Positions 9,309 to 63,953 of a stretch of 64,000 nucleotides of DNA are shown here, in pieces. Position 1 is the first letter of the stretch. Each line of letters starts with the position of its first letter. The DNA lies in contig JBEPZY010000001.1 in assembly GCA_041640595.1 (NCBI GenBank), positions 224,001 to 288,000 on the forward strand, read 5' to 3'. The DNA is from Gemmatales bacterium (GTDB lineage: Bacteria; Planctomycetota; Planctomycetia; Gemmatales; HRBIN36). The translations under genes and the position numbers were made by a program. The notes beneath the pieces are model-generated. The model was given only the letters and a program-made list of their open reading frames with translations. It had not been told where the DNA came from and did no database searches.

Positions 9309-9429
9309 ATTCGTTCACCAAAAAGCTCAGGGTTTTACTGGGCCGCACGTTTCATCTCAGATGCGGCCGATAATTTCGCGGGTGTGGTGTGCAGCGTTTC
9401 CTGCCCCGATTTCCACCCGTCCTCGCAGC

Positions 9430-9645
9430 AATGTAGCCAGCCTGGCTTAGTAGCCTTATCGGACACACACTGCGATTCGCCGATTGTTGCCGGTAATGCA
9501 GCCAGCCTGGCTTGGGGGAGCGTCTTGATTGGGGACGGTCGGGTAATTTGCCGCGTCAGATTTCGTATATTGGTTGCGCAGCAGACGCGGGTCCAGCCGC
9601 AAGTTGAATGGCCAGGTAATTTGCCGCGTCAGGTTTAGTATTTTG
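9430..9645. repeat. two pairs of intergenic direct repeats
   Basis: AATG(T/C)AGCCAGCCTGGCTT at 9430 and 9495; GGTAATTTGCCGCGTCAG at 9542 and 9615. Confidence 0.7.
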
Positions 9646-9677
9646 CCAAGCGTGGAGAGTCGCAGTCTGCCTGATGC

Positions 9678-12600
9678 TCAGGCGAGGCGCAACAGTTTGC
9701 GTGTCAGCCATTCCGCGGAAAGCAAAGTTACGACCACCACCAGTGCCCAGGGCGGACCCTGCGTGTGGTGCGGTTGCTCAGCGGGTTGCCAGAGCGATGC
9801 CAGGTAAAACCACAGATAATCGAAGCCCTTATCCCAGACGTCCTGGACCCGGCCTTCAGCGCGGGTTTCGGCCACGATCGATTCGAGTGCTTCGGGAATG
9901 GTGCCGGCGTCCGGCAACAGGAGGAACAACCGGCGGGTTTCGTTCTCCGGAGAGAGTTCGGTTGTTCCGGTCTGGCGAATCTGCTGCCGCATCGCCTGTT
10001 CGGCACGTTCAAGGGCGACAAAAAGCGATGCCTGGCGTCGCGCTGATTCGCTCAGTTCGCTGGCTGGGCTGGCCAGACGGTGTAAAGCCGCGTAGTCGGG
10101 ACGGGTGAAATCGCGCTCGGGATCACTGCGTTCGACCACGCAATCTCCTTCGAGCACGTCAATCGCACCCGGGATGGGTACCTGCACGCGATAACGCCCA
10201 GCCCGCAGGATTTGCACTCTTCCGATAAACCAGCCCGGTCGGCCAGGATCGGGTTGCATCGGTATTCCCCGCACCCACTCGGCCGGTACTTCGCCGCTAT
10301 CACTGCTGAGCGGTTTGACCCGCAGCAATACGCTGACGTTGCCACTGAGCGGTCGCATTTCCGCATCGTAAAGCTGAGCCTCCACCTGCACGACATCGCC
10401 TTCGGTGTAGCGGCTGCCAACCACCAGTAACCCGCGCCGGGTGCCGCGACTGGGATCGCCTTTGCCCATATAGCGAATGAGCTTTGTCCAGAACCGCTCG
10501 TAATAGCGCTCCTGAAAGGCACGCAGTCGCCAGATTTCCGGAGAACCGATATAGAAGACCGGCCCTTTACCGAGCCGATGCATGACGAAAAATGGCTGCA
10601 ACTGGCCGGGCTGGGGACCGTCAGGGCTGGTCAGGTAGCGTGGGTCGGGATCGCCGTAACGGGCCAGGACACTGGCGGCGCCTTTCACTTCCAGAACGGG
10701 AGCGAAGCTGTAAAAGCCACGCCGACTCGGTTCCAGAGCCCGACCCTGAGCCGAACGGCGGCGCTCGCCGGGTTTTGGTGTCTCGGTTTCCTGCCAGAAA
10801 AATTGCTCCCAGGCTTCCCGCCAGGTGTCGGGTAACTGACTGGTTTCCTGATCGTCGAGCAGGTTGAAAAACGGCATCTGTCCGGCCGCGGGTTCCCAAT
10901 TGACCGCCCAGGGTTCGCGGGCAGAGCGGTCGAGGATTTGCACCGACAACCGCGTGTTATCCAGCACCACCGGAAGCAGGAAGCGAATCGCCTCCAGTTC
11001 TTTGTCCCGGGCCACGTGAAAAGTGAAGATAGGCCCGGCCACGTAGATGAAGCCGCCGGCAAATTCCGTCACCCATCGCTTCAAATTTTCCAGCGAGCCA
11101 GCCGGAACACGCCGCCAATCCAAATCGAGGGCCACCACCACGTCATAATTGCCGAGATTGTAAGGGTCATCGTCGCGGTCACGCAAACTGTCCGGGAAAG
11201 CCGTCAGCAATCGCCTCGGGTCAACGTCTTGCACACTTTCCCGACCGGCGGATTGCAGGTAAATGGAAAGGTCGAATTTCTCCTGCTCCCGAACCAGCAG
11301 GGTACGCAGGAATTGATACTCACGCATCGGGGAACTGGCACAGAGCAGGACGTTGAGCTTTTTCTCTTCGACCTGCACCTGCACCGGCTTTTCGGACAGG
11401 TTGTCGGCGTGAGCACGTTCCCCTGGCAGGGGTTGCACGCGTGCCCAGAAGCGAAAGGTTCCCTGCAATTTTTCGGCGTTGCGGTAAACGAATTGCTCGG
11501 ATGCCAGGGCCAGCCGACCGGCAGTTGCCTGGAGTCGCACTTCCTTTTTTTCCAGCACTTCGGGGCTTTCCTGACCGGGCTTCTGCACCAGCAGGGTCAC
11601 CTGCACCGGTGTGCCAGGCGGAATGTTCTCCCCTTCGACAACAAAGCGCAGCGGAAATTCATCCTCCGGCTGGACGCGAGTCGGGCCGACAAAATCCACC
11701 AGCCGCAAGTTGCTCGTCTCCTGGTGAGCACCCACCGCGACCGTAAAAACTGGAATGCCCGACTTTTTCGCCTCCTCCAGAGCCTGCGTCATTTCCTGGG
11801 ACGAGCCGGCGTTGAATCGGCCGTCGCTGAAAATAATGACCCCTTTCAGCAGGTTGTTGGCTTCGCGGCGGATGACATCCACCAGGGCGCCGCTGGCATT
11901 GGTTCGATTGGGCAATGCCTGCTCCGCATCGCGGAGATCGCCGAGGGTTAGTTCGAGGCTCCGCAGCAATTCGGCACGACGACGCTCTCGGACTTCCGGT
12001 TCCGCACTGTCCAGGCTCACCAGTTGCGAGGCTGTTTTTTGCACCTGTTCCAGCACAGAAACCGGAATCGGGGTGGCCAGGTTTTGCGGTTGACCCACTT
12101 GCAGGAATGGCTGCAACTTCTCCCGCACAAATTGCCCCAGTTGTTCCCGAATCTCCTGCTGCACTTCGGCGGGCAAATCTTCCCAGCGTTCCGCTCGGGC
12201 CTGGGCTAACCGCTCGCGCAGAGAAGGCAGATTCAACGTGGTCTGCGTATCCAGTCGGGCTCCGAAACGGTAACAGACCACCGGGTTTTTAGCCAGTACG
12301 CGGGGCAGAAAGTCGGGGGTAAGCGGGCTACCGGCCGTGTCGGGCGATTGCGGATCCAGCCAGCGTAACAGCAATTCCTGCCGGGTGGGACGCGGCGTGT
12401 GCGGGTCTTCGGTGGGCGGAACATCGCTCACATGCATGCTCTGCGAGACGTCGAACAGCAAGACAATCCGGGAATGCCGCTCGCGTACCTCCACTTCGCG
12501 AATGGCCGGTAAGAGCCACACGAAAAACACCACCAGGATCGTCAGCATCCGCAACGCGGCCAGGAACAAAGCCCAGGGCTGGCCCACCGTCAGTCCTTCG

Positions 12601-12785
12601 CGGCGATACCAGCGAAAGACAAACACTGCCGCGACCAGCACCAGCACCACGCCCAGCCCGATGAGCAGGCCCGGCGTCATCCATTCCAGGCCCGGAATCT
12701 CACTCACCGGTCGGCCAAAAAGTTCCGGTGGGTCAGTCCAGCGACGAAGAATATGCTCGGTGGTGATCTGGGCGTCGGTTGACAT
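9678..12785 (-). CDS. membrane VWA-domain protein with glutamine-amidotransferase-like domain
   Basis: MIDAS motif FDVSQSM, T, FSDGR; YDVVV and GGGFIYVAG segments; C-terminal TM ending EWLTRK. Confidence 0.85.
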   Translation of the reverse strand: MSTDAQITTEHILRRWTDPPELFGRPVSEIPGLEWMTPGLLIGLGVVLVLVAAVFVFRWYRREGLTVGQPWALFLAALRMLTILVVFFVWLLPAIREVEVRERHSRIVLLFDVSQSMHVSDVPPTEDPHTPRPTRQELLLRWLDPQSPDTAGSPLTPDFLPRVLAKNPVVCYRFGARLDTQTTLNLPSLRERLAQARAERWEDLPAEVQQEIREQLGQFVREKLQPFLQVGQPQNLATPIPVSVLEQVQKTASQLVSLDSAEPEVRERRRAELLRSLELTLGDLRDAEQALPNRTNASGALVDVIRREANNLLKGVIIFSDGRFNAGSSQEMTQALEEAKKSGIPVFTVAVGAHQETSNLRLVDFVGPTRVQPEDEFPLRFVVEGENIPPGTPVQVTLLVQKPGQESPEVLEKKEVRLQATAGRLALASEQFVYRNAEKLQGTFRFWARVQPLPGERAHADNLSEKPVQVQVEEKKLNVLLCASSPMREYQFLRTLLVREQEKFDLSIYLQSAGRESVQDVDPRRLLTAFPDSLRDRDDDPYNLGNYDVVVALDLDWRRVPAGSLENLKRWVTEFAGGFIYVAGPIFTFHVARDKELEAIRFLLPVVLDNTRLSVQILDRSAREPWAVNWEPAAGQMPFFNLLDDQETSQLPDTWREAWEQFFWQETETPKPGERRRSAQGRALEPSRRGFYSFAPVLEVKGAASVLARYGDPDPRYLTSPDGPQPGQLQPFFVMHRLGKGPVFYIGSPEIWRLRAFQERYYERFWTKLIRYMGKGDPSRGTRRGLLVVGSRYTEGDVVQVEAQLYDAEMRPLSGNVSVLLRVKPLSSDSGEVPAEWVRGIPMQPDPGRPGWFIGRVQILRAGRYRVQVPIPGAIDVLEGDCVVERSDPERDFTRPDYAALHRLASPASELSESARRQASLFVALERAEQAMRQQIRQTGTTELSPENETRRLFLLLPDAGTIPEALESIVAETRAEGRVQDVWDKGFDYLWFYLASLWQPAEQPHHTQGPPWALVVVVTLLSAEWLTRKLLRLA

Positions 12786-12791
12786 GGCGGT

Positions 12792-15722
12792 TTAGCTCGC
12801 ACTTACTGTAGCCGGTTCCGCACTGGGCATCGCCGTGGAAATCAGGCGAGCTGCAGGCGGAGGTTGCAGCCCTTTTTCTCCAGCCGGGATATGGTGGCTG
12901 AATTTCATCGCCAAAAATTGTTCCAGCGCCAGTAGCCCCAGAAGGGCCAGCAGGACCCACGAATAATCAGACCAGGAGCGTGTCCGCAGAAATTCCTGCG
13001 GGGGAGGAGCGGACTCGGTCAGGAGAGGCGACCGGCTGACGATCTGCTGGGCTTCGGCGAAAGCCATCCGCTGTTCCCCTTCCGTCAAAGCGCGCAGCCA
13101 TTGTTGATGCAAATCGGCACTGGCCACGCGACGCAGGTCCGCTTCCTCGCGGCAATCGGGGTTGAAAGCCAGGATGCGGGATTCTGGTTCCCCTTTGGGA
13201 GTGATTCCTTCTCCCGGTTCGTTGAGGCGGAGCAGGTAGAATCCTGCTAGCTGCGGATGCAACCGGAAAACTACCTCGTCGCCCTGTTCCACGCCGCTGA
13301 TGGAACCGAGTGGCTGACTTTCTTCGCGCGGTTTACCTTCCGGCCAGTAATAGAGTTGCAGGCGTGGGGCATATTGCTCTTTGTCGAGGCGAAACTCGAC
13401 ACTGCGTTCCAGAAGCCGACTGCTCTCGGTCTGGCGTGCCTTGCGGGATTCGCCGGCCAGATAGCTTTGCAGAAACACCAGCATGGGAACGTAGCTGAAG
13501 AACAGCTCATTGCCCCAGTTGTTCCAGGAGTAATTGCGGCCAGGAATGGGCGTAGGATTGGCCGGAGTGAAAAACGCGACCACCGTTCCTCGCCGTTGTC
13601 CAGTTCCGACCTTGGCTTCCACGACCAGCGGGTCGCCTTCCAGGAGTTGCTGCTGGAATTTTTCCAACCGTTGCCGCAGTTCCTTGCGATCGGGACGTTT
13701 CCAGTATTCAGCAAGCTCTGGGTCGTTGAGCAAAGAGGAGACCGCTTCCAGAAGCGGTCCTTTTCGGCTGCGTTTGAGTTCAGCATCGGCGACCCAGTTG
13801 AGCATGCGCTGAGCGTAACTGGCGAGGACTGGTCGTTGCGGGGAGGTATCCTGGTTGAGAAGCTGCACCAGTTCCACCGTCTGCAAGCGAAATGCGGTCA
13901 ACGGCTCGCGGTTGGTCAGTTGCACCAGCACCTGCACATCCGGGCCCGGTTTCCATGTCGGGTCCACCTTGAAATAGCGGTTCACCTGCAGGTAACGGGC
14001 AAACTCTTCCAGCATTTCTTTGGGAAAGCTGAAGGCAGGATGCTGGGTTTGCAAAACCCGAACTTTCGGAGCGGTATCGTCCAGATCGGGCGGTTCGTCC
14101 ACGAAGGTGAGATTACTGGTGGGAACCGGTCGCAGTGCCAGCGGTGCCGGGAAAATGCCCTGCCCGTTGCGGTACAGAAATCGGTTGTAGAGGTCCACAT
14201 TCACGCGGTCGCCGAGAAAGAAAACGACGCTGCCACCTCGCCGCACATAGTTCTCCAGAGCCTTCAGGCTATCCTCGTCCAAGTCGGAAGGCCCGTTGCC
14301 CACCCCGGGAACGTTCAGCAAATAAACGACCGGATAATCATCGAGCTTACGGTTCTTGAGTTCGTTCGGCCGACACCGTTCCGCCCGCCAGCCCAGACGC
14401 CGACTTCCGCCAATAGCGCTGGCCACATATTCGCTGGGCGGTTTCGGGCTATCGATCTGGTGATCCGGGTCCACCAGCAGAACCGGTATATCTTTCCGCA
14501 ATTCGAGAAACAGATAGCGAACGTTGTCGGCGGGCAGATGATCGGGTTGCTGGCCGTCCTCGACATATACGGCAATCTGTTTCGGCCCCGGCGGGTCGGT
14601 CTCGTAAAAACGCATATCCAGGCGAACCGTACGCTCTTCGTAACTGCCGATGCGATCGACGGCCCGTGCGAACTCGTTTTTCTCCACGCCATCCACGCGA
14701 ACACCGACACGCAAGCCCGTGCGTTCTGTGGCACTGAAATTGCGCAGCGTCACCTCCAGGTCAAAGGGGACACCCGGTGCGATTACCTGAACGGGCACGG
14801 CACTGGCTGCTGTGCCTTCCTCGCGGCGTTGCTGAGCACGGGCGACCACGTGAACGATGGATAAGTTGGCGTGGCTGACCGGACGTTCCTGTGGATTGTC
14901 CGCCGTGCGGGTCGGGGCAGCCACATCGTACAGACGAATCCGTACCTCCTGACCGCGTGCCCAGTCTCCCAGCAGAGCCAGCACCGGTCGGAAACCTTCG
15001 TTATTCCAGTCCTGCTCGCGGAAATCGGTCACCAGGTGCAGGTACTTGTGGCCGCGTTTGATGCTGGCCAGGTAAGCGGCTATGCCGGGCGTATCAGACG
15101 AACCACGGAGCAGGGTCAACCAATCTTCTGGTTTGAGCCGCAATGCCGTGGGCGACGCCGCTTCCAATCGCGCAAGCATCCGCGACAACTCCTCGCTGGT
15201 CAGGAGCTGGCCAGGCAGTGCTTCCGCCAGCTGGGCATACGCCGGGCCGATCTCCGGCGTCTCCGGCTGGGATAGGCGGAACAGCGTTACGTAGTGGGCA
15301 CCGGGTGTGTCAAGGTAATCCCGCAACATCTGGGCGACTAATTCGGTAGCCCGGCGGAAAGCCGTCGGTCCGCCAATTGCCCGGGCATCTTCCAGATCCC
15401 GCATGCTCAGGCTATCGTCCAGCACGATGAAATGATAATGGGGCAATTCCTGACGCCGTGCCTGGGCCGCTTCTCCCATCCACCAGGTTGGCCGAACCAC
15501 CAGCGCCACCAGCACCAGCACTATCAGACAGCGGAGCATCAACAGAATAAGCTGTTCAATGAGAATGCGGCGGCGATTGCGCTGCTGCGATTTGAGCAAA
15601 AACTCCATCGCTGCCCAGGCAATCCGCCGGTACCGCATGCGGTTGATGAGGTGGATGATAATCGGGGAAGCGACTGCCGTGGCTCCCCACCAGTAGGCTG
15701 GATTGATGGCTTGTTCCCACAT
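12792..15722 (-). CDS. BatA N-terminal domain + VWA domain protein
   Basis: PIIIHLINR..WAAMEFL (BatA), LDDSLSM MIDAS, DNVRY, RGGSVVFFLG; C-terminal TM. Confidence 0.88.
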   Translation of the reverse strand: MWEQAINPAYWWGATAVASPIIIHLINRMRYRRIAWAAMEFLLKSQQRNRRRILIEQLILLMLRCLIVLVLVALVVRPTWWMGEAAQARRQELPHYHFIVLDDSLSMRDLEDARAIGGPTAFRRATELVAQMLRDYLDTPGAHYVTLFRLSQPETPEIGPAYAQLAEALPGQLLTSEELSRMLARLEAASPTALRLKPEDWLTLLRGSSDTPGIAAYLASIKRGHKYLHLVTDFREQDWNNEGFRPVLALLGDWARGQEVRIRLYDVAAPTRTADNPQERPVSHANLSIVHVVARAQQRREEGTAASAVPVQVIAPGVPFDLEVTLRNFSATERTGLRVGVRVDGVEKNEFARAVDRIGSYEERTVRLDMRFYETDPPGPKQIAVYVEDGQQPDHLPADNVRYLFLELRKDIPVLLVDPDHQIDSPKPPSEYVASAIGGSRRLGWRAERCRPNELKNRKLDDYPVVYLLNVPGVGNGPSDLDEDSLKALENYVRRGGSVVFFLGDRVNVDLYNRFLYRNGQGIFPAPLALRPVPTSNLTFVDEPPDLDDTAPKVRVLQTQHPAFSFPKEMLEEFARYLQVNRYFKVDPTWKPGPDVQVLVQLTNREPLTAFRLQTVELVQLLNQDTSPQRPVLASYAQRMLNWVADAELKRSRKGPLLEAVSSLLNDPELAEYWKRPDRKELRQRLEKFQQQLLEGDPLVVEAKVGTGQRRGTVVAFFTPANPTPIPGRNYSWNNWGNELFFSYVPMLVFLQSYLAGESRKARQTESSRLLERSVEFRLDKEQYAPRLQLYYWPEGKPREESQPLGSISGVEQGDEVVFRLHPQLAGFYLLRLNEPGEGITPKGEPESRILAFNPDCREEADLRRVASADLHQQWLRALTEGEQRMAFAEAQQIVSRSPLLTESAPPPQEFLRTRSWSDYSWVLLALLGLLALEQFLAMKFSHHIPAGEKGLQPPPAARLISTAMPSAEPATVSAS

Positions 15723-22355: not shown

Positions 22356-23291
22356 TCAGGTTACGACCTGCTGGGCGAGGGCTTCGCGAATGGCAAGCAG
22401 GTTCCGCAACAGCTCTTCAAACCGGTCCAGGGGCCACATATTGGGCCCATCGCTCAAAGCCTGATCGGGACGGGGATGCACTTCAAAGAAAACGCCATCA
22501 CAGCCGCACGCGACCGCCGCCCGTGCCAGATACGGAATCATCGGCCGTAACCCGCCACTGCGATCCCCGGCCGCCCCTGGTAACTGCACCGAGTGCGTGG
22601 CATCGAAAATTACCGGACAGCCCAATGCCTGCATCCAGGGGATCGCTCGCATGTCCACGATCAAATTGCCGTAACCGAAACTGCTGCCGCGTTCGGTCAG
22701 CAGGACACGGTGGTTACCTACTTCGTGCAGTTTGGCCACGACGTGTCGCATATCCCACGGGGCCAGGAACTGGCCTTTCTTGACGTTGACAGGCTTACCG
22801 GTGCGCCCGGCAGCGTAAATGAGGTCGGTTTGCCGGGCCAGGAAAGCGGGGATCTGTAACAGGTCGCAAACGGCCGCGGTTGGTTCTGCCTGCCACGGTT
22901 CGTGGATGTCGGTGGTGGTCGGCAAACCGGAAACGCGGCGGACTTTTGCCAGAATCTCCAGACCCCTGTGCAGTCCCGGGCCGCGGTAGGACTTGCCCGA
23001 ACTGCGATTGGCTTTGTCAAACGAGGCCTTGAAAATCAGCGGTATCCGCAAGCGATCGTGAATGTCCGCCAGCTTCTCGGCAATGTGCAGCGTAAGCTCT
23101 TCCGATTCAATCACGCACGGCCCGGCGATGACCAGAAGGGGTTCCCCAGCCCCGCACGCCACCGTTCCGGTGATGACCACGTGGCGGTGATTCGAGTTTC
23201 CGTTGGACTCCGAGGAGATGGTTTCTCCACTGGCATTTTTGCCGACTGGCAAAGGCCAGACACCTGTCAGGTTTCCATCAGGAAATTGCAT
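22356..23291 (-). CDS. kdsA: 3-deoxy-8-phosphooctulonate (KDO8P) synthase
   Basis: [52 protein letters not shown]. Confidence 0.95.
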
Positions 23292-40200: not shown

Positions 40201-41655
40201 TCAGAGCGATTCGCCGGACACGGGAGCACTGGAAGTGAGGCTGGCGGCAGCGGAACTGCGGCGACCGGACAAACGCTGCCACCATTCCCGCAGGCGTTCG
40301 CGCCAGCCGGGCACGATACGGTCTTCCAGTTCGCGGAAGTTGGGACGGAGCACGACCAGAATCATGAGCGGTGCGAACCACAGCACCTGCGTGCCGCCGG
40401 CACGTCCGTACCAGAATTGCACGCCGATGGTCAACGCCGTCGTCAACACCAGCAAATGGCCGAAGTTTTTTTGTCGCGGCCAGCAAACGCTGAACACCAC
40501 CAGCACCAGATAGGCAACGAAAATCGGTACGCGATAGGCATAATGCAATTCCAGGCCCGACCAGAGTCCTTCGCCCGTGGGTCGGCGCGAGACATCCCAG
40601 GCTCGCCAGTCCGGCCAGTTCAGGACACGCTGCCATTCCTGCCATAAGGTTCCCGCTTGCCATAAGCTGATGGCGAGCGCCGCCAGAGCTATGCCCATAC
40701 CCAGAAGCAACCGGCCCAGCCCCCTGCGGTAATAATAGCTCATCCACAATGGCACCAGAAACGCCGGGAAATATGCCACGGCACAGCCCAGGCCCAGCAG
40801 CAATCCGGCCAGTAACGGTAACCGATACACCGCCAGCATCAGCACCAGCAACGTAGCCGGTACCAAATGCAGCAGGTCGGTGGCATGGTACGCCGAATAG
40901 GGCAGCAACAAATACAGCAACGCTGCCGAGGCTCCCAGAACAGCTTTGCCGAAATGACCGTAACCAATCCAGAACAGGCTCACCACGATCAAAACGTGAC
41001 AGGCGACGGTGATCCCTGCAAGCAACCGCTCAATGTCGAAAAAGCGCTCGACCACCGGCTGACTGGCGAGCACTTGCGGGGCACGCTCCAGCAAAACAGT
41101 TTCTTCCGCCGCGGGTTTGGGGGACTCGAAAACGGGCACGGCCGTGGTGACGCAGAACACCACCAGGAGCATTGCCGCCAGCCAGATTAAACCCTCGGTG
41201 GTCAGATTGGGCTGGAAGGATGAGCGACGCAAAACCACCAGATCCGCCAGACACCGCAGCAGCAGAGCAGCGCAGCCCAATAGCAGTAGCAGATAACCGC
41301 GTCGCACGGCCCGATCGGCTTGCTGAAATTGAGCCAGGGCGTGAACCGCCATACTCCAGGGCAGCGCTTCTTCGAGCAGTCCGGGTGAGCTCACCTGTAC
41401 CGTGCTGGCTTGGCTTACCGTTACCGCCAGCGTCTGGCACAACGCCGTCGTTGCTTCCTGCCGCCGGGCCTGGCATTCGCGGAGATACAAAATTCCCGGA
41501 ACGAGCAAGAAGAGTAGCAGAATATCCCAATTTTGCAGGCTAGCCAGTCGGCGGAAACGGAAAAACAGCGCCAGCGCCAGCACTAGCGACAGATAGAACC
41601 AAGTCGTGGCGCTGGGCAGGTGAAAGTCCAGGAAGATAGAACCGCCCGTGCTCAT
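40201..41655 (-). CDS. polytopic membrane protein (possible GT-C/GT87-like)
   Basis: Many TM segments; LYLLLPY and YFPAFLVPLW motifs; family assignment is tentative. Confidence 0.7.
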   Translation of the reverse strand: MSTGGSIFLDFHLPSATTWFYLSLVLALALFFRFRRLASLQNWDILLLFLLVPGILYLRECQARRQEATTALCQTLAVTVSQASTVQVSSPGLLEEALPWSMAVHALAQFQQADRAVRRGYLLLLLGCAALLLRCLADLVVLRRSSFQPNLTTEGLIWLAAMLLVVFCVTTAVPVFESPKPAAEETVLLERAPQVLASQPVVERFFDIERLLAGITVACHVLIVVSLFWIGYGHFGKAVLGASAALLYLLLPYSAYHATDLLHLVPATLLVLMLAVYRLPLLAGLLLGLGCAVAYFPAFLVPLWMSYYYRRGLGRLLLGMGIALAALAISLWQAGTLWQEWQRVLNWPDWRAWDVSRRPTGEGLWSGLELHYAYRVPIFVAYLVLVVFSVCWPRQKNFGHLLVLTTALTIGVQFWYGRAGGTQVLWFAPLMILVVLRPNFRELEDRIVPGWRERLREWWQRLSGRRSSAAASLTSSAPVSGESL

Positions 41656-41904: not shown

Positions 41905-41962
41905 GATATTGGAAGCCGGTTACGAATCGTGCCGGTCTGCGATGGTCATTGAGGAGGCGGAT

Positions 41963-42235
41963 ATGCCGCAAGCTATTGTTGACCCCGGGGAATTGCGACG
42001 CTTTGCCCACAATCTCAAGCAGTTTGTGACCGATTTGCAGGGCCGCTTGCAGGTATTGCATAGTCAAATGCTGGCCCTGGGTGACACCTGGCGCGATCAG
42101 GAACACGAAAAGTTCGCCGAGGAATTTCAGCAAACGGTTCAGGTGCTCAAACGTTTTACAGAATCGGCGGAAAAGCAAGTCCCCTTCTTACTTCGCAAGG
42201 CTGAGAAAATCGAAGAGTATCTCCGGATTCGCTAA
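41963..42235 (+). CDS. WXG100 family (ESAT-6-like) protein, WxD variant
   Basis: 90 aa; GAGGAGG RBS; VDPGELRRFA..L, central W-R-D, helix-turn-helix pattern ending EEYL. Confidence 0.88.
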   Translation: MPQAIVDPGELRRFAHNLKQFVTDLQGRLQVLHSQMLALGDTWRDQEHEKFAEEFQQTVQVLKRFTESAEKQVPFLLRKAEKIEEYLRIR

Positions 42236-42238
42236 GCC

Positions 42239-42778
42239 ATGTCCCAGGAAGCACGCGTCCTGTCGGTGGAAGTGCTGGAGGAATTGCGAGCGGCTCTGGT
42301 GCGCTTTAAACAGGAGGCCAGCGCGGCACTCAGTTCTGTAGCGCTGATCGTGGAACGAATGGCGGTCTGGTTGGAACAGCAGGAACGATTCTGGAAGCAG
42401 GAGATTCGCAAACGCGAACAGGCTGTTTCCGAGGCACGACTGGAATTGCAACGGCGAAAATTGATGACCACGGTTCAGGGCCGGCCTCCGGACACGACCG
42501 AGCAAGAAAAAGCCCTGCGTAAAGCCCAGGCCCGATTGCAGGAAGCGGAACAGAAACTCCAGGCAACCAAATCCTGGATGATTCGCTGGCCGCGGGTGGT
42601 CAATGAATATGGCTCGTCCGGCCAGCGGCTCAGCGAGTTTCTGGAGGCCGAGATGCCGCAACTATTGGCCTGGATGCAGGGGCGAATCGAGGCACTGGAA
42701 GCCTATTTAGCGCTTCAGGCTCCCGAACCGCCTGGCCCTACCGCTGCCAGTGATACTGGCTCCACCACTTCCCCATGA
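42239..42778 (+). CDS. coiled-coil helical protein of the WXG100 operon
   Basis: 179 aa, all-helical, no signal peptide, 3 nt after the WXG100 stop. Confidence 0.75.
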   Translation: MSQEARVLSVEVLEELRAALVRFKQEASAALSSVALIVERMAVWLEQQERFWKQEIRKREQAVSEARLELQRRKLMTTVQGRPPDTTEQEKALRKAQARLQEAEQKLQATKSWMIRWPRVVNEYGSSGQRLSEFLEAEMPQLLAWMQGRIEALEAYLALQAPEPPGPTAASDTGSTTSP

Positions 42779-42790
42779 CCGGGCCGCACC

Positions 42791-43003
42791 ATGTCCCTGC
42801 AAACCGGAATTGCCCAGCTGCATGAGGCGATGCGCGACCTGCGACGGGCAGCGGATCGCGCCCAGATGTACTGGACGGATACGGTGCAGCAGGAATTCGA
42901 GAAACGTTATTTGCAGCCTCTGGAGCTGATCGTCCAGCGCACCTTGGAGGAAATGCAGCGTCTGGACGAAGCGTTGCGGCAAATGCAACGAGATTGCACG
43001 TGA
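42791..43003 (+). CDS. small WXG100-like protein (WTD)
   Basis: 70 aa helical; W-T-D...F motif parallels W-R-D...F of 41963..42235. Confidence 0.7.
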   Translation: MSLQTGIAQLHEAMRDLRRAADRAQMYWTDTVQQEFEKRYLQPLELIVQRTLEEMQRLDEALRQMQRDCT

Positions 43004-43025
43004 CTCGCTGACTTCGGGAATCAAC

Positions 43026-46000
43026 ATGTCCGTCACCCAAGCCGAACCGGTCAGCCCATCCACGAACGTTCCGCTGTTGGAACGCCAGCGTGAACTCCTG
43101 AACCGTCTCCGCGAGATTATCCGCTGGCGGACGCAGACGGAGGTGGAACTGGAGCAACATTATCGCCGCCGGCTGGAACAAATCGAGGCTCACCACCGTC
43201 GCCGTCTGCCGGAAATCGAGAATCGCTACCGGCAGCAACGTGCGGAGCTGGAAAGGCAGTTGCAGGAATCGCTCCAGGCCCTTCAGACGGAACAGGAAAG
43301 CGAAACCGCCGCCATTGAAGCGGAATGGCACGAGCGACGCGCCAGCCTGGAGGAACGGGCCCAGCAGGAACGCGAAAACAAAGAACGCGAATTCGAGGAA
43401 CGCAAATGGGAACTGAATACCGAATACGAAGCGGCGGCCAGCGATCTGGAAGAACGCTCGCGCAAGCTGGAGTTGAAGTTGCAGGAACAGTGGGCACGCA
43501 TTAAGGCCATTCGGGAGGAGGCTCGCCAGCTGCTTCAGGTCTGGCGGCAACCGGTGGAAAAAGTCGTTGCCGTTCGACCCAAATTCACCAAAGACGACGA
43601 CTTGCTGGCCATCGTCCAGGCTAAAACCGACCTGGCCAGGGAATACCTCGAAAGCCTCAAGACCTTGGTGCTTCCCCGCTGTTTGGAAGGCAAGCGACCC
43701 TGGTGGCTGGCCACGTTTCTTGCCGTGCTGTTGGCGCCATTGTTTTTGATTGGTTACGCGGTGTTGATCGCCGGTCAAAGTGTCGGCCAGCTGCTGGCAG
43801 GCTCGTTTTGGGCCGAACATGCTTTGCCCGCTCTGCTGACCAGTCTGGTGGGTGCAATCCTCGGAAGCGGATTGATCCTGCTGGGCGTCTACTGGCTGGC
43901 ACGCTGGCGAGTCTGGCAACTGTACCGGCCACTTTTGACGGAAATTTACGAGGCTTGCAAAGCCGGACAAATCTGCAAGGAAGCCGCGGAAGCCGCCTAT
44001 CGTCGCCAGGCCGCTGAACTGAAAGCACGCCGGCAGAAGTTTGAAGAAACCCTCAAGGCGATGATCGTGGAGCATCGTCGCTGGCTGGCTGAGCATGAGG
44101 TACAGAGTCAGCGCGACCTGCAGTCGTGCGACGAACAATTCCGCAGCCGCCTCGACAGTTGCCGGCGGCAGTTTACCAGCCGTCGCCAGCAAATCTCCCA
44201 GGAACTTACTTCCCGGTTGGCAGAGCTGGACAGGCAATATCAGGCCCAGCGCCAGCGTATCGAAGACGAGTACCAGCAGGGCCTGGCTCAGTTGGAAGCG
44301 TGGCGGCAACAGCAGTGGGGACAATTGCGGCAACGCTGGGCAGAGACCATGCGGCAAATCCGTCGCCTGTCCGCCGAATTTCACCAGCAGGCCTACCAGG
44401 CTTGTCCGTCGTGGGAGGATGATTTCTGGAATCACTGGCAGGCACCCGTAGTTCCTGCGGAGAAGATTCCGCTGGGCCGATTCCACCTGGCACTCCGCGA
44501 TTGGAAAGACGCCATCCCGGATGATGCCGACATGCGAGCGGCGACGCCGTCGGAACTCTGGTTAGCTGCCGCTCTCGAATTTCCGGAACGCTGTTCGTGT
44601 GTGGTACGCTTGCCGGAGAATGCAGCCGCGAACGACCAGGCACGTGTCGCTGCTTTGCGATTTATGCAGATGTATCTATTCCGTCTCCTGGCTACCATCC
44701 CGCCTGGAAAACTTCGTTTCACCATTCTCGACCCGGTGGGCCTTGGGGAACCGTTTTCCGCTTTCATGCACCTGGCCGATTACGACGAGCAGCTGGTTAC
44801 CAGTCGCATCTGGACCGAACCGCAACACATCGAGCAACGCCTGGCCGACCTGACCGCCCACATGGAGACGGTGCTGCAAACCTATCTCCGCAACCAGTAC
44901 GCCACTATCGAGGAATACAATCAGCAAGCCGGCGAACTGGCCGAACCTTATCGCATTCTCGTTGTCGCAGATTTCCCGACGAATTTTACTTCGGAAGCAG
45001 CCCGGCGATTGGCCAGCATCATCGCCAGTGGTGCCCGTTGCGGTGTTTATGTCGTCATCAGTGTCGACCCGCGTTTGCCCATGCCGCATGGCTTTCAGCT
45101 GGAGGACCTCGAACGTGCCGGAGCCATGCTGGTCTGGAAAAATAATCGGCTGGCGTGGAACGACGCCGATTTTGGCCAGTTGCCGCTGCACCTCGACCCA
45201 CCTCCGCCGGATCAGCTGTGCACCCGTTTGATGCACGAGATCGGCAAGGCCGCTCTGGCTGCCAAACGAGTCGAGGTACCGTTCAGCTGGGTGGCACCAC
45301 CGCCGGAAAAACGCTGGGCCAGCGACTCCAGTTCCGGAATCGAAATTCCTATCGGTCGCTGTGGAGCCACCAAGCGGCAGTATTTCCGACTTGGCCAGGG
45401 AACCGCCCAGCATGTGCTGATTGCGGGTAAGACCGGTTCGGGAAAATCTACGCTGTTGCACGTCCTGATTACCAATCTCGCCCTGCATTACAGCCCTCAG
45501 GAAGTGGAACTTTATCTGGTGGACTTCAAAAAAGGCGTGGAATTCAAGACGTATGCGACACATCGTTTGCCGCATGCCCGTGTCATTGCCATCGAAAGTG
45601 AGCGGGAGTTCGGCCTGAGCGTGTTGCAGCGATTGGATGCCGAGCTGAGACATCGCGGGGAATTATTCCGGCAGGCCGGCGTGCAGGATATTCGCGCCTA
45701 TCGGCAGGTGACCGGTCAGCCCTTGCCGCGAATTCTGCTCCTGGTGGACGAGTTTCAGGAATTCTTCGTGGAAGACGACCGCATCGCTCAGGAGTCAGCG
45801 CAACTGCTGGACCGTCTGGTGCGGCAGGGACGTGCGTTTGGTTTGCACGTCGTCCTCGGCTCACAGACTCTGGGCGGAGCCTACACTCTGGCACGCAGCA
45901 CACTCGACCAGATGGCCGTGCGAATTGCCCTGCAATGCAGCGAAGCAGATTCCGCATTGATCCTGAGCGAAGACAACACAGCAGCCCGTTTGCTCAGCCG

Positions 46001-47039
46001 GCCAGGAGAAGCTATTTACAACGATGCCAACGGCCTGGTCGAAGGGAACAGCCCATTTCAAATCGTATGGCTCAGCGACGCTACCCGCGACCAGTATCTA
46101 CGCGAGATCGAGGAATTGGCCCGTCGCCGGCAGCTTCCCGCACTGCCGCAGGTGGTTTTCGAAGGCAACGCTCCCTCGATCCTGGCCAGCAATACCGAGT
46201 TGTGGAAGCGCATTTCCGGTCAGGTTCCGCCCAGTCCCACACCGGTGGTGTGGTTCGGCGATTCCATTGCCATCCGCGAACCCACGCACTTGGTGCTGCA
46301 CCGCCACACCGGCGCCAATCTGGCTATTCTCGGTCAGGACGAAACCTTAGCGGCAGGGATGTTCTGTGCGAGCCTGATCGCACTGGCGGCTCAGCTTCCT
46401 GTTCGGGCGGAGGGCAGCGGTTCCGACAACCAGCATACGGCAACTTTTTATGTTCTCGACGGTAGTCTGGAAGGAACACCGGTATCGGCCAGTTTGACGG
46501 CAACCTTGGCCGTCCTGCCTCAGCCCATCCGTCTCGGCCGCTGGCGCGAAGTCAGCACCATTTTGCAGGAATTGCATGCCGAGATGCAGAAACGCATTCA
46601 GTCGGCAGATGCACCCAGTCCGACCTGGGTGCTTTGGATTTTCGGCTTACACCGTTTCCGTGACCTTCGCCGCGAGGAAGATGATTACGGTTTCGGTTTT
46701 GATAGCTCCAAGCCACCCAGTGCAGCTCGTCTGCTTGCGGAACTGTTGCGGGAAGGGCCTACGGTCGGGATTCACGTGTTTCTCTGGTGCGACACGCTTA
46801 CCAACCTGCAACGTTCCTTCGACCGGGCCGCTCTGCGCGAACTGAATTATCGCATCGCCATGCAAATGAGTGCCAACGATTCCAGCAACTTTCTCGATTC
46901 ACCGCTGGCGTCCCGGCTCGGTCCCTATCGCGCATACTTCTACAGCGAAGAGCAGGGACGGCTGGAGAAATTCCGTCCCTATGGCTTACCGGATGAGGCT
47001 TACCTGCAACAAGTGGCACTTCATTTGCGCTCTCGCTAA
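43026..47039 (+). CDS. FtsK/SpoIIIE-domain membrane ATPase (EccC/EssC-like)
   Basis: Coiled coil, 2 TMs, coiled coil, then three RecA-like domains; intact HVLIAGKTGSGKST and LLVDEFQE, RQGRAFGLH in the middle domain. Confidence 0.9.
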   Translation: MSVTQAEPVSPSTNVPLLERQRELLNRLREIIRWRTQTEVELEQHYRRRLEQIEAHHRRRLPEIENRYRQQRAELERQLQESLQALQTEQESETAAIEAEWHERRASLEERAQQERENKEREFEERKWELNTEYEAAASDLEERSRKLELKLQEQWARIKAIREEARQLLQVWRQPVEKVVAVRPKFTKDDDLLAIVQAKTDLAREYLESLKTLVLPRCLEGKRPWWLATFLAVLLAPLFLIGYAVLIAGQSVGQLLAGSFWAEHALPALLTSLVGAILGSGLILLGVYWLARWRVWQLYRPLLTEIYEACKAGQICKEAAEAAYRRQAAELKARRQKFEETLKAMIVEHRRWLAEHEVQSQRDLQSCDEQFRSRLDSCRRQFTSRRQQISQELTSRLAELDRQYQAQRQRIEDEYQQGLAQLEAWRQQQWGQLRQRWAETMRQIRRLSAEFHQQAYQACPSWEDDFWNHWQAPVVPAEKIPLGRFHLALRDWKDAIPDDADMRAATPSELWLAAALEFPERCSCVVRLPENAAANDQARVAALRFMQMYLFRLLATIPPGKLRFTILDPVGLGEPFSAFMHLADYDEQLVTSRIWTEPQHIEQRLADLTAHMETVLQTYLRNQYATIEEYNQQAGELAEPYRILVVADFPTNFTSEAARRLASIIASGARCGVYVVISVDPRLPMPHGFQLEDLERAGAMLVWKNNRLAWNDADFGQLPLHLDPPPPDQLCTRLMHEIGKAALAAKRVEVPFSWVAPPPEKRWASDSSSGIEIPIGRCGATKRQYFRLGQGTAQHVLIAGKTGSGKSTLLHVLITNLALHYSPQEVELYLVDFKKGVEFKTYATHRLPHARVIAIESEREFGLSVLQRLDAELRHRGELFRQAGVQDIRAYRQVTGQPLPRILLLVDEFQEFFVEDDRIAQESAQLLDRLVRQGRAFGLHVVLGSQTLGGAYTLARSTLDQMAVRIALQCSEADSALILSEDNTAARLLSRPGEAIYNDANGLVEGNSPFQIVWLSDATRDQYLREIEELARRRQLPALPQVVFEGNAPSILASNTELWKRISGQVPPSPTPVVWFGDSIAIREPTHLVLHRHTGANLAILGQDETLAAGMFCASLIALAAQLPVRAEGSGSDNQHTATFYVLDGSLEGTPVSASLTATLAVLPQPIRLGRWREVSTILQELHAEMQKRIQSADAPSPTWVLWIFGLHRFRDLRREEDDYGFGFDSSKPPSAARLLAELLREGPTVGIHVFLWCDTLTNLQRSFDRAALRELNYRIAMQMSANDSSNFLDSPLASRLGPYRAYFYSEEQGRLEKFRPYGLPDEAYLQQVALHLRSR

Positions 47040-47161
47040 GTGGTTGTGCTGGAGTTTTCCCTTGACAATCTCCAGCAAGCGGCATAATGATTGTCCAAAT
47101 AAAAGTTTTTGCGTTCTGACCTTCCCTGAATTTGTGCAGCGGGCGCACACCTGGAAACTCA

Positions 47162-60319: not shown

Positions 60320-60994
60320 TTACTGCTTTTGTTCGGAAGGCTGGGCCGTCTGATCACCGCCAGTGCTGGCGGAGCTGGCTTGTTGGGAACTGGCCTGTTC
60401 CGAACCGGCTTGTTCGGTCATGGCAGTGCTGACGATTACTCGGGCCGGTCGCAGCACGCGATCGTGATAAAAATATCCTGCCTCGAGCACTTTCAGTACG
60501 GTGTTAGGCGGGTGATCGCGGCTCGGCTGCTGCATGACTGCCTGGTGTAGATGCGGGTCGAAGGGCTGACCTTCCGCATCCATCGGCACAATGCCGTGTT
60601 TGCGAAGCACCTGTTGCAGTTGCTGATAAATCATCGCCACGCCCTGGCGCAAGGGCGAATCCTGTTGCACCGAATCGAGTGCCCGCTGGAAGTTGTCCAG
60701 TACCGGCAGCAGATCGAGGGCCAGCGGCCAGAGCGCGAATCTCTGCTCCTGTTCGCGTTCTTTGGCGACACGCTTCTGGTAATTCTCGAAGTCGGCCCGG
60801 GTCCGAAGCAGCAGTTCTTTGAAGGTGTCGCGTTCGCGACTGAGTTGTTCGAGATCGGCAAGCACCTGGGCCGCTTCCGCTGTTCCATCGGAAGTGTTTG
60901 CGGCCGATGGCGAAGCAGTCGTCGCTGGCTTATCGGTTTTTCCGGTTGTGGAGTCGGACGAGTTGCTTGATTTCTGGGTGGTTTCGTCGCTCAT
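60320..60994 (-). CDS. grpE: nucleotide exchange factor GrpE
   Basis: ADFENYQKR, LLPVLDNF, FDPHLHQA, GY...RVLRPARV. Confidence 0.95.
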   Translation of the reverse strand: MSDETTQKSSNSSDSTTGKTDKPATTASPSAANTSDGTAEAAQVLADLEQLSRERDTFKELLLRTRADFENYQKRVAKEREQEQRFALWPLALDLLPVLDNFQRALDSVQQDSPLRQGVAMIYQQLQQVLRKHGIVPMDAEGQPFDPHLHQAVMQQPSRDHPPNTVLKVLEAGYFYHDRVLRPARVIVSTAMTEQAGSEQASSQQASSASTGGDQTAQPSEQKQ

Positions 60995-61015
60995 GGCTTG
61001 GTCCAGGATGGCGGT

Positions 61016-62170
61016 TTAATCATCGGAATCTGATTTCGCTGGCGGAGCTTCACCGCCCAGCCAGGATTTGAGCATTTCGAGAAAACTTCGCCGTTGCGGG
61101 GATACGTTTTTCTGTTCCAGTTCGGCCAGTTCCCGCAGCAATTCTTCCTGGCGGCGGGTAAGTTTGCGGGGCACTTCCACGACCACCTGAACGAGTAAGT
61201 CGCCGCGTTCCTGACTGCGTAATACTGGCATGCCCTGTTGCGGAATGCGTAACACCTCGTGGCTCTGGGTGCCCCGGGGAATGACCAGTTTCGTTGTCTT
61301 GCCGTCCAGGGTGGGAATTTCAATCTCCGCTCCCAGAGCCGCCTGGGTAAAACTGATCGGAACCTGACAGAACAGGTCGCGCCCTTGCCGACGGAAGAAC
61401 GGATGCTCTTTAACTCGTAGCACGCAGTACAAATCGCCACGCGGCGCACCAGGATCGCCCGCCTCACCCTCGCCGGGCAAATGCAAACGATGGCCGGTTT
61501 CAACACCGGGCGGAATCCGCACTTCGATGGTGCGGCGGGCCTGCACTTTGCCACGCCCCTGACAGCGCGGGCAAACCTGCGTGATTCGGTAACCCAGACC
61601 CTGGCAGCTACGGCACTGCGTCCGCACCGTCAGCAATCCTTGTCGCAGGTAAATCTCTCCGTGTCCGCCACACCGGGAACAGGTCTCCGGACGATAACCG
61701 CGTGGAATACCCGCGCCGCCACATTCACCACACAATTCCAGCCGCTCGATTTCCAGTGTCCGGCTGGTTCCGGTAAACGCTTCCCGCAGGTCGATTTCCA
61801 CGAGGGTTTCCAGATCACGACCCGGGCGCGGTCCTCGCCGGGAACGCCTGCCGCCGAAACCGAAGAAATCGCTCAACAAGTCGAAGAACGGGTCGAGTGG
61901 TTCGTGGCTCGGCCCATACGTTCCCGGCGGACTGAACGACTCATCCAGACCAGCAAATCCGTAGCGGTCGTAGCGGGCCCGTTTTTCCGGATCGCAAAGA
62001 ACCTCGTAAGCCTCGGTGATCTCCTTGAATTTCTGGGCAGCTTCTTCGTCGCCGGGATTGCGGTCGGGGTGATACTTCTTGGCCAGTTCGCGGTAGGCGC
62101 GCTTGATCTCCTCCTCGCTCGCGTTGCGGGCGACGCCCAACACTTGGTAATAATCTCGTTTACTGGCCAT
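61016..62170 (-). CDS. dnaJ: molecular chaperone DnaJ
   Basis: [11 protein letters not shown], four CxxCxGxG repeats, GDL motifs. Confidence 0.96.
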
Positions 62171-62231
62171 AGCCCTTGCTTCAACCGTCGCAGCCATTTT
62201 GCACAGGCTATTGAGATTTTACACCACTCAG

Positions 62232-62266
62232 AAAAAGCAGGGTGAACCGGCGTCGGTCCACCCTGC
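62232..62266 (-). terminator. putative intrinsic terminator after groEL
   Basis: Minus strand GCAGGGTGGACCG-ACGC-CGGTTCACCCTGC followed by TTTTT. Confidence 0.65.
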
Positions 62267-62333
62267 TGAGAGGTTCGGCGAATGATAGCAGTCCGACCGC
62301 TACGACGCCAGGCCAGCGGACGCGACGCCGACA

Positions 62334-63953
62334 TCAATGCACCGCACCTTCGACTTTCGGCTTGTCGGCATCTTCGTCAATCCGCGTGACCAGAACTTCC
62401 GTCGTCAGCATCAACCCAGCAATACTGGCAGCGTTTTGCAGGGCAGTGCGGACGACTTTGGTGGGATCAATGATGCCCGCCTTGTACATATCCACATACT
62501 GCCCGGTGTTGACGTCGTAGCCGATATTCGGATTGTCCTGGTCGAGAATCTCCTGAGCGATCACGGCACCGTCGCGGCCGGCGTTTTCGACCAGGGTTCG
62601 GATCGGCTGTTCCAGGGCCCGCAAAACGATCTCAGCTCCGTATTTTTCGTCGCCCTCGAGTTTCTTAGCCAGCTTCTGCACCGCCTCCTTGCAGCGGAGC
62701 AAAGCGACACCGCCACCGGGGAGAATACCTTCTTCGACGGCGGCACGGGTCGCATGCAGCGCATCTTCGACGCGTGCCTTGCGCTCTTTCATCTCGGCTT
62801 CCGTGGCCGCACCTACCTTGATGATGGCCACGCCACCAGTCAGTTTCGCCAGCCGTTCGCTGAATTTTTCCTTGTCGTATTCGCTTTCCGTCTGCTCCAT
62901 CTGGGTGCGAATCTGCTCAATGCGTTTCTGAATCTCCTGCTTCTTGCCTTTGCCGCCGATGATGGTGCAGCTTTCCTTTTCGACGCGGACACGTTCGCAC
63001 TGGCCGAGTTGCCGCGTCGTGACGTTCTCCAGTTTGATGCCCAGGTCTTCACTGATCAGTTGGCCGCCGGTCAGCACGGCGATGTCGCCGAGGATGGCTT
63101 TGCGCCGATCCCCGAAACCGGGAGCCTTGACGGCGCAGCATTGCAACACGCCGCGGAGTTTGTTCACCACCAGCGTGGCCAGTGCCTCGCCTTCCACGTC
63201 TTCAGCAATAATCAGCAACGCCCGACCTTCTTGGGCGACACGCTCCAGAAGCGGCACAATATCGCGGACGTTGCTAATCTTTTTCTCGTAAATCAGGATG
63301 TACGGATTCTCCAGCTCACAACGCATCGTGGACGGGTCAGTGATGAAGTACGGCGAAATATAGCCCTTATCGAACTGCATGCCCTCCACGAATTCCACCG
63401 TGGTTTCGGCGGTCTTGCCCTCTTCCACTTGGATGACGCCATCCTTGCCGACACGCTCGACCGCGTCGGCGAGCATTTTGCCGATGGTCATGTCGTTGTT
63501 GGCGCTGATGGCACCTACCTGGGCGATTTCCTCTTTGCTGGTCACCTTGCGGGACATCTTTTCGAGCTGGCTCACCGCCGCTTCCACGGCTTGCTCAATG
63601 CCCCGCTTAATTCCCATCGGATTAGCACCGGCGGTGGTGTGTTTGAGACCTTCCTTGTAGATTGCCGCAGCCAGGACAGTCGCAGTGGTGGTGCCATCGC
63701 CAGCGACATCGCTGGTTTTCTGAGCGACGGCGTTGACCAGCTTGGCGCCCATGTTCTCAAAAGGATCGGGCAGATCAATTTCCTTGCTCACAGTCACGCC
63801 GTCTTTGGTCACCGTCGGGTTGCCGAAGGTTTTTTCGAGGATGACGTTGTGCCCAGCTGGGCCGAGGGTGCAACCGACCGCTTTGGCCAGTTTCTCAGCA
63901 CCAGCGAGCAGTTTTTTGCGTGCATCGTCAGTGAACATCAGTTGCTTGGCCAT
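62334..63953 (-). CDS. groEL: chaperonin GroEL
   Basis: [44 protein letters not shown]. Confidence 0.98.

Follow-up and report, generated by a model that had tools for sequence, protein, structure and literature searches.

Four adjacent genes

We analysed a 64,000-nucleotide (nt) stretch of the genome of a Gemmatales bacterium of the Planctomycetota (assembly GCA_041640595.1, contig JBEPZY010000001.1, positions 224,001 to 288,000 of the forward strand; the whole stretch is called the window below). Within it, four tightly packed genes on the + strand, here named A to D, encode two short WXG100-like proteins, a coiled-coil hairpin protein and a membrane ATPase of the FtsK type. An earlier note made from the sequence alone had described them as a minimal operon resembling a type VII secretion system (T7SS). 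The four open reading frames (ORFs) were as it had given them, both in length and in the gaps of 3, 12 and 22 nt between them (A-B, B-C and C-D). The features are listed here with the evidence for each in brackets.

41951..41957, +: GAGGAGG before gene A, resembling a ribosome-binding site (read from the sequence)
41963..42235, +: gene A, a 90-amino-acid (aa) WXG100 protein of the HP0062 (W-R-D) type (PF06013, PDB matches, conservation)
42239..42778, +: gene B, 179 aa, predicted long two-helix hairpin with a short Pro/Ala/Ser/Thr tail (AlphaFold2 model)
42791..43003, +: gene C, a short 70-aa WXG100-like protein (W-x-D) (hhalign to A)
43026..47039, +: gene D, a 1337-aa membrane ATPase with coiled coil, membrane hairpin, helical stalk and domains D1, D2 and D3 (profiles, hydropathy, model)
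43695..43904, +: predicted membrane hairpin of D, residues 224–254 and 266–293, joined by a loop of about twelve residues (hydropathy and model)
44406..45260, +: D1, an FtsK-type domain that lacks both Walker A and Walker B, strongly conserved and confined to this family (hhalign, motif columns)
45261..46175, +: D2, the ATPase domain that is active by its motifs, with Walker A GKTGSGKS at residues 801–808 (45426–45449) and Walker B LLLVDEFQE at residues 904–912 (motif columns, PF01580)
46176..47036, +: D3, an FtsK-type domain in which the Walker A lysine and the Walker B acids are replaced (hhalign, motif columns)

Gene A passes the cut-off of PF06013 (38.3 bits against 27.3), which agrees with its earlier assignment to the WXG100 family, and lies under that of TIGR03930 (33.5 against 44.85). 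Where W-x-G is expected it has W43-R44-D45, as had been noted, and W43 and D45 are invariant in 65/65 aligned relatives. The start M1 at 41963 is also invariant in 65/65, so the conserved protein does not begin at the GTG of the longer frame (41735). The top PDB matches are to HP0062 (3fx7/2gts, E 3e-5, residues 5–85), followed by EsxB, and the hairpin of Helicobacter pylori HP0062 carries the same W-R-D turn (PMC3397514). A search of the genome collection gave 375 matches to A, of which the best 80 were taken as relatives; across these 80 loci A is 57–91% identical and is the most conserved of the small proteins, and the closest named records, at 90–91% identity, are from Gemmatales and bacterium HR36. 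The C-terminal end of A is conserved as K-A-E-x-I-E-E-Y-L-x-x-R, with Y86 present in 81/81 sequences and arginine four positions after it in 74/81; A itself ends four residues past Y86.

Gene C carries W28-T29-D30, in which W28 and D30 are invariant (69/69). The earlier view of C as a further WXG100-like protein holds in so far as its profile aligns to that of A around W-x-D (hhalign probability 80, E 1.5e-5), although C reaches the cut-off of no Pfam or NCBIfam family. Residue 69 of C (window 42995–42997) is a C-terminal cysteine that is near-invariant (at least 90% of 69); as a disulfide it could form only outside the cytoplasm, or it could be a site of modification, and it thus bears on where C is located. 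B and C, which are 12 nt apart in the window, overlap by 4 nt in 42/69 loci according to our start calls.

The AlphaFold2 model of B (68 sequences, predicted local distance difference test (pLDDT) 93.7) is a single long hairpin with helices at residues 10–75 and 87–159. B matches no Pfam or NCBIfam family, including LXG, PPE and PspA, and a Foldseek search with the model returned nothing under E 0.001, with 8GMH appearing only at E 0.4. A fold search gave a top Z of 10.8 to SMC and other coiled coils, which is not diagnostic, and ESM Atlas returned unnamed clusters plus one Imm33-like cluster at 0.83. The ends of B weakly resemble the ends of A-type WXG proteins: for the A of the window and several others 0–2 of 200 shuffles reach the observed score, although the absolute scores are low. 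An L/I-E-x-Y end motif with a near-invariant tyrosine is common to A (Y86, 81/81) and B (Y156, 69/71); in 69 B sequences the position four residues after this tyrosine is mostly A, S, Q or P and never an acid. By a hydropathy scan, A, B and C are free of hydrophobic stretches, in agreement with the signal peptides that the earlier note had reported missing.

Gene D passes PF01580 (112.6 bits, residues 773–948). At least one hydrophobic segment lies at the position of its membrane hairpin in 42/44 full-length relatives, and no large periplasmic domain is predicted. The AlphaFold2 model of residues 140–1337 (55 sequences, mean pLDDT 84, predicted template-modelling score 0.65) has helices at 224–248 and 259–457, the latter a single long helix, followed by three alpha/beta domains; residues 140–460 are helical in it, and a Pfam scan of D found no FHA family. 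D2 has Walker A as G-[KR]-T-G-[SA]-G-K-S in 44/44 relatives. By hhalign D3 is related to D2 (probability 97, E 1.7e-11) and D1 to D3 (probability 92), whereas the direct score between D1 and D2 is near zero. Foldseek with the model of D ranks EccC first (4nh0, E 3.5e-29), then EssC (5fv0/4lya, 1.9e-20), FtsK (3.5e-12) and TcpA (3.3e-11), the lead of EccC and EssC being owed partly to the tandem domain layout. The score against the FtsK model PRK10263 is 15.6 bits.

In a tree of active domains (32 rows, with EssC left out, L106 entered twice as overlapping cuts and the EccC rows unresolved on long branches), D2 of the window falls into a clade (93/89) of planctomycete, verrucomicrobial, Chloroflexota, Rhodococcus, Caballeronia, Helicobacter and Deinococcus ATPases, apart from the clade of FtsK and TcpA (92/94). 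The earlier description of D as a membrane ATPase of the EccC/EssC kind therefore holds for PF01580, the hairpin and the top structural matches, but not for the domain layout, which differs, nor for D2, which groups in a clade of its own outside EccC. On its profiles and predicted structure, D is best regarded as a separate family with the build of EccC and EssC, which by NCBIfam cut-offs falls within neither.

Shared retention of the genes and the tails of gene B

Of the 80 loci, 59 have the order A-B-C-D, which shows that the grouping is not due to chance. In ten more, A-B-C is present but no D was scored (several of these lie close to a contig end), ten have A alone (two at contig ends), and one is without a C call. 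We also drew 301 genomes evenly from the phylum, in which relatives share descent and counts are not independent. A, B, C and D1 were found in the same 39 of these, and D1 matched only there; outside the 39 there were one borderline match to A and two to C (E 4e-4 to 1e-3, in three genomes). This bears out the earlier expectation that the four genes would be conserved together, while a 'phylum-wide' distribution is ruled out by the figure of 39/301, the module being patchy. The 39 genomes have single copies, apart from G070, with two D1, and G266, which has a second module of divergent sequence. That second module (G266:C3:226000-245999, locus L108, 6338–11801) consists of an ATPase gene, two WXG genes, a gene in the position of B with a tail that looks ParB-like by eye, and then C, and it coexists with an ordinary unloaded module on C2.

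Physical linkage varies. In the single-contig genome G120, A, B, C and D lie at 0.71, 2.66, 1.94 and 0.24 megabases (Mb), and in G035 at 2.50, 4.30, 4.30 and 5.92 Mb. Where A stands alone, B was found elsewhere in 5/5 genomes and D in 3/3 tested; in split loci C still adjoins B in L092, L133 and L137, but not in L135. Since the genes occur in the same 39 genomes, mostly as single copies and even megabases apart, they behave as one kept machine, whose four parts a genome either keeps or loses as a set, rather than as a mobile island. A is 71% identical per column and D2 is nearly invariant across two phyla. Presence in only 39/301 genomes and the occurrence of relatives on plasmids are signs of mobility; against it are a host-like guanine plus cytosine (GC) content, the lack of any transfer RNA gene in the window, the lack of a recurring mobile gene, subclades that follow taxonomy (in a small tree) and the unlinked single copies. 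All-against-all clustering of the 4,434 ORFs from the 80 loci revealed no fifth operon gene, and recurring neighbours belong to large generic families only (ABC ATPases 11, sensor/regulator proteins 8, kinases 7). Beyond the Planctomycetota, B occurs in 6/251 genomes of Verrucomicrobiota and A in 8/301 of Chloroflexota.

The B family comprises 3,251 representatives at E up to 0.001, and we surveyed the tails of the best 150, which are those nearest to a planctomycete-heavy profile. Most (133/150) are shorter than 290 aa and have disordered tails rich in A, P, E, S, G, T and D, with a median length of 48 aa; among 89 tails of such short relatives there is one homologous pair. The other 17/150 are longer, and 15 of these 17 match Imm33-like domains by Pfam (14 over the cut-off). 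Fusions of B with lengths of 335–432 aa were found. Pfam matched nothing in the two remaining long relatives or in six of 255–286 aa, and no toxin domain was seen among those scanned (the 17 long ones and these six). Fusions of B to Imm33-like domains occur in L011, L058, L070, L121, L128 and L137, and the Phycisphaerales genes are also often unlinked.

A different picture emerges in the Chloroflexota, where we inspected seven of the eight loci in the sample. The B protein of L032 bears Tox-GHH (E 2e-15) and is followed by a YbjN gene, so that the combination of C-terminal toxin and adjacent immunity gene that defines polymorphic toxins is present in relatives such as this one. In L102 B bears GNAT (E 4e-8); the domains in L105 (resembling a PD-(D/E)xK nuclease) and L104 (ParB-like) were labelled by eye and have no Pfam hit. 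L103 and L106 have short B tails, and in L107 B is cut by the contig end. Because homologs of B carry toxin- or immunity-type C-terminal domains elsewhere, B is the cargo-carrier gene of the family, a role in other lineages that the earlier note overlooked. The copy in the window is, as read from its sequence, an unloaded carrier with only a short disordered tail. It ends at 179 aa without a C-terminal toxin domain, has no adjacent immunity gene and has no second B elsewhere in the genome, consistent with the toxin-immunity pair that had been looked for in vain.

Two of the Chloroflexota loci have further unusual genes. Between A and B of L104 (5690–6268) lies a stand-alone 193-aa ORF that matches D3 (E 3e-70), as if the last ATPase domain travelled with the substrates. 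The gene before A in L032 (284–1648) encodes a helical N-terminus, a hydrophobic stretch and then a WD40 propeller, with the ATPase on another contig; its product may be the stalk and membrane part of that ATPase, separated from the rest.

The operon is flanked by a membrane-protein gene and an arginine decarboxylase gene, and its GC content (0.58–0.59) is that of its flanks. One further feature lies downstream:

47062..47091, +: sigma-70-like promoter match before the arginine decarboxylase gene (10/12 match; 1.5 such sites expected by chance in the region)

This match gives a weak indication that the operon ends with D. On the other side, at 40201–41655 (−), a 484-aa multi-pass membrane protein is encoded divergently from the operon and upstream of a Ser/Thr kinase gene; it has no Pfam or NCBIfam match, and its adjacency to the operon is not kept in relatives. 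Elsewhere in the window are three consecutive large ORFs at 5673–15722 (−; 1212, 1035 and 976 aa), none of them matched by NCBIfam at E 1e-25, and an ordinary groEL, dnaJ and grpE cluster at 60323–63953 (−).

Export or an intracellular role

The product of kdsA (window 22359–23291, −) is over its family cut-off, as are LpxC and BamA, which are encoded elsewhere in the genome. Together these make the host a diderm with lipopolysaccharide (LPS), as had been proposed from kdsA. In this genome (95.5% complete) there is no match to EccB or EccD (PF05108, TIGR03920; EccE, MycP and EspG were not searched), with positive controls in Corynebacterium, nor to EssB/YukC, YukD or EsaA (PF10140, PF08817, TIGR03929; EssA was not searched), with positive controls in Bacillus subtilis. 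The earlier failure to recognise EccB, EccD, EsaA or EssB in the window thus extends to the genome as a whole.

Our best explanation, to which we would give an even chance, is that the four genes encode a stripped-down and toxin-less, that is domesticated, type VII-like exporter whose cargo would be the rod of A, B and C itself. Two of its steps we count as established, namely that A to D are kept or lost as a set and that B, elsewhere a carrier of cargo, has only a short disordered tail here. By analogy with the PE-PPE and LXG-Lap1-Lap2 complexes, and from the overlap of genes B and C, B would lie beside C, with A added, in an elongated helical bundle, and the invariant tyrosine that A and B each have close to their ends may be a recognition signal that replaces YxxxD/E. 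As in EccC, this signal would bind an inactive domain of D, with D3 the first candidate, and bring about hexamer formation, while D2 alone would burn ATP; the export signal and partner proteins of the PE-PPE, LXG-Lap and EccC systems are described in PMC9600955. The model of the YukB hexamer has a central channel formed by YukB (bioRxiv 2025.01.24.634720), and by analogy the six membrane hairpins of D would form the channel without EccB/D/E or EssB/EsaA. D would then drive the rod, built of B and C and probably of A, through the inner membrane and into the periplasm. More speculatively, the exported rod might be a strut of the envelope or an element of the surface, with Imm33-like fusions carrying protection rather than attack.

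A bolder version, which we consider rather unlikely, is that a toxin-delivery machine was domesticated in LPS diderms to give a four-protein translocon in which the hairpins of the ATPase are the whole channel and the unloaded rod is a product for the envelope, while B-Imm33 fusions would post immunity, not toxin, outside the cytoplasm. Such a translocon would be the smallest type VII-like system that works, and one in a Gram-negative envelope.

A number of observations speak against export. The relatives of D in the TerY-P, Helicobacter, Deinococcus and Rhodococcus loci are without a membrane helix (highest hydropathy 1.4–1.7), which makes export doubtful for part of the family, and PMC11090510 likewise doubts it for soluble forms of the ATPase. 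At the ends of A and B there is no YxxxD/E signal, and W-x-G is replaced by W-x-D. The stalk of about 165 residues between membrane and motor is far longer than a simple channel requires. D scores far below the NCBIfam cut-offs for EccC and EssC (117, 112 and 96 bits; EccCa 116.6 of 509, EccCb 95.8 of 347). The profile of D2 scores 85 and 77 bits against first ATPase domains of EccC and 84, 79, 75, 68 and 56 against FtsK-like proteins, so that the active domain alone is no closer to EccC than to FtsK. For the toxin N-termini in the position of B in the Helicobacter and Caballeronia loci, homology to B did not reach significance, and the match there is by gene position only. Lastly, it is not obvious what a cell would gain by exporting an empty rod, and a step across the outer membrane is not known. 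The points that weigh most, in our view, are that there are soluble relatives, that neither YxxxD/E nor WxG is present, and that an outer-membrane step is lacking.

The soluble relatives also mean that the core of the family need not export at all (PMC11090510), and it may be that nothing crosses the membrane: D would be a tethered motor that assembles or dismantles bundles or polymers of A, B and C in the cytoplasm, as a scaffold or in membrane remodelling of the PspA/ESCRT-III kind. We think this unlikely. The long stalk, which sets the motor far from the membrane, the lack of cargo and of a known signal motif, and the retention of single copies when unlinked would all suit a structural role, and the hairpin of B has PspA-like dimensions (8akq Z 9.3, 4whe Z 9.1). 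However, those two matches rank only 22nd and 33rd among unrelated coiled coils, below a meaningful level for long helices, and we rejected an assignment of B to PspA/ESCRT-III; Foldseek, as noted, was empty at its threshold, and B has neither a PspA family hit nor evidence of an amphipathic anchor. A set of genes in only 39/301 genomes does not explain a membrane trait of the whole phylum, and in other lineages B carries toxins.

If D does export, its effectors might instead be encoded elsewhere, with A, B and C remaining inside as chaperones or targeting factors as Lap1 and Lap2 do. The Lap proteins are WXG100-like, are needed for export and are undetected outside (PMC9600955), and the free scattering of the genes in some genomes means that cargo genes could be unlinked too. 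We nevertheless judge this quite improbable: searches of 65,282 six-frame genome ORFs with the profiles of A, B and C found no second copy or fusion (the best other hits have E 0.11 and 0.79) and PF06013 matches the genome once, although effectors with an unrelated N-terminus would escape such searches. The genome also has no Imm33-like match, the control genomes being silent too.

The armed relatives in TerY-P and CoCoNuT defence loci (PMC11090510, PMC4978471) suggest a further possibility, in which an armed D frees a B-borne nuclease from its inhibitor on infection; the operon in the window would be a disarmed or sensor remnant that has lost the toxin and acts in signalling or as a decoy. 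Fusions of B to Imm33 do resemble a cassette from which the toxin was lost. Yet a remnant should decay, which contrasts with the conservation of A and D2 described above, and no defence gene recurs beside the operon in the 80 loci; we hold this to be very unlikely. It is scarcely credible that D moves DNA, as a translocase or as a coupling protein of conjugation, with the small genes as accessories. In favour of this, D2 gives similar scores against FtsK-like proteins and EccC, and one cluster member carries the name FtsK/SpoIIIE in its source. Against it, an ordinary ftsK is encoded elsewhere in the genome (C2:102919-105306), D2 lies outside the FtsK/TcpA clade, D has three tandem domains and co-occurs strictly with WXG100 genes, and no relaxase or mating genes recur in the flanks of the 80 loci. 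None of the outcomes that the earlier note had named as counting against its proposal (small proteins that do not model as helical hairpins, genes not conserved together, an ATPase that groups with DNA-translocating proteins and is dispensable for export) was found.

A set of four genes small enough for one plasmid makes it testable in a laboratory strain what the type VII channel is made of and which accessory parts it can do without. B carries toxin in Chloroflexota but an immunity-type domain or no cargo at all in planctomycetes; this exchange, together with the survival of unlinked genes, points to a steady job beyond toxin delivery.

Comparison with known systems

Judged by its sequence, the window operon belongs neither to T7SSa or T7SSb nor to the CoCoNuT form, nor is it a polymorphic toxin locus. 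EccC of T7SSa (4NH0, 7NP7) and EssC/YukB of T7SSb (5FV0, 4LYA, 9QKS) share with D two membrane helices, tandem FtsK-type domains and a co-encoded WXG100 protein, and are its best structural matches. Unlike these, D has one domain fewer, no FHA and a long coiled-coil stalk, and the genome has no match to EccB, EccD, EssB, EsaA or YukD, and the small proteins no YxxxD/E. Whereas EccC consists of membrane helices, a DUF and three ATPase domains, D has three FtsK-type domains in all, of which one is active. The LXG-Lap1-Lap2 and PE-PPE systems (PMC9600955) resemble the operon in having a longer helical carrier with a variable C-terminal toxin and short WXG100-like partners alongside it, but B is a plain, unloaded two-helix hairpin without a family match, and the likeness is one of organisation, with homology not established.

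The Type III-A CoCoNuT EssC-like module of Bell et al. 2024 (PMC11090510) is a soluble, nuclease-armed form. In common with the window operon, this module and that of TerY-P have three ATPase domains of which only D2 is active, a long N-terminal coiled coil, and two WXG100-like proteins flanking a coiled-coil protein; however, their ATPases lack membrane helices, the coiled coil is fused to a D-ExK nuclease, and VWA genes flank the locus, none of which applies here. HP0062 and HP0066 of H. pylori have been called a minimal type VII set (PMC4978471). The HP0062 type shares the W-R-D hairpin and an ATPase of the same clade, and a Helicobacter plasmid has genes in the order A, B-position, C-position and D; on that plasmid, though, the B-position gene bears a WHH/HNH nuclease and is followed by SMI1/KNR4, and the ATPase is without a membrane helix. 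Plasmid loci of this ATPase clade (the Caballeronia TerY-P locus and that of Helicobacter) run in the order WXG, nuclease-bearing gene, two small genes and ATPase. The B-position proteins of Deinococcus and Rhodococcus give weak, compositionally biased matches to B (E 2e-5 and 6e-6), and that of Rhodococcus has a 250-residue match to B of L104 (E 2e-17). In the Rhodococcus plasmid NZ_CP126457.1 (L084:6727-12157), which has an ATPase of the same clade, genes in the B, C and A positions stand beside annotated TerD genes. The N-terminus of its ATPase looks TerD-like.

PMC3796261 states that a type VII system is absent from LPS diderms, and the available text of PMC11217815 does not treat Gram-negative systems. 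Transposon-essentiality data for P. limnophila (PMC10632474) and V. spinosum (PMC12283558) gave nothing that could be assigned to the four genes. In the literature covered, outside subscription journals and the supplements of PMC3482391 and PMC11090510 (which may list fusions), we found no experimental study of the class with a three-domain ATPase, and nothing that describes B as a carrier or its fusion to Imm33. The earlier note was right that such loci had been recorded outside Gram-positives by comparative genomics, but missed that planctomycetes had already been named among the hosts.

The closest precedent is that of Zhang et al. 2012 (PMC3482391), who in note 6 of their Table 1 describe a 'solo WXG' with a distinct YueA-like ATPase of three HerA/FtsK domains, the middle one active, name planctomycetes and verrucomicrobia as hosts and call these 'mobile versions'. 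With its WXG gene and a three-domain ATPase in which only the middle domain is active, the window operon falls within their definition. Genes B and C, a membrane hairpin and cargo are all absent from Table 1 note 6, whereas here four genes are kept, mostly as single copies and with no mobile genes nearby. The class has thus been known since 2012 from comparative genomics, and what our analysis adds is the all-or-none presence of the four genes, even when they are unlinked, and the swap of cargo on B.

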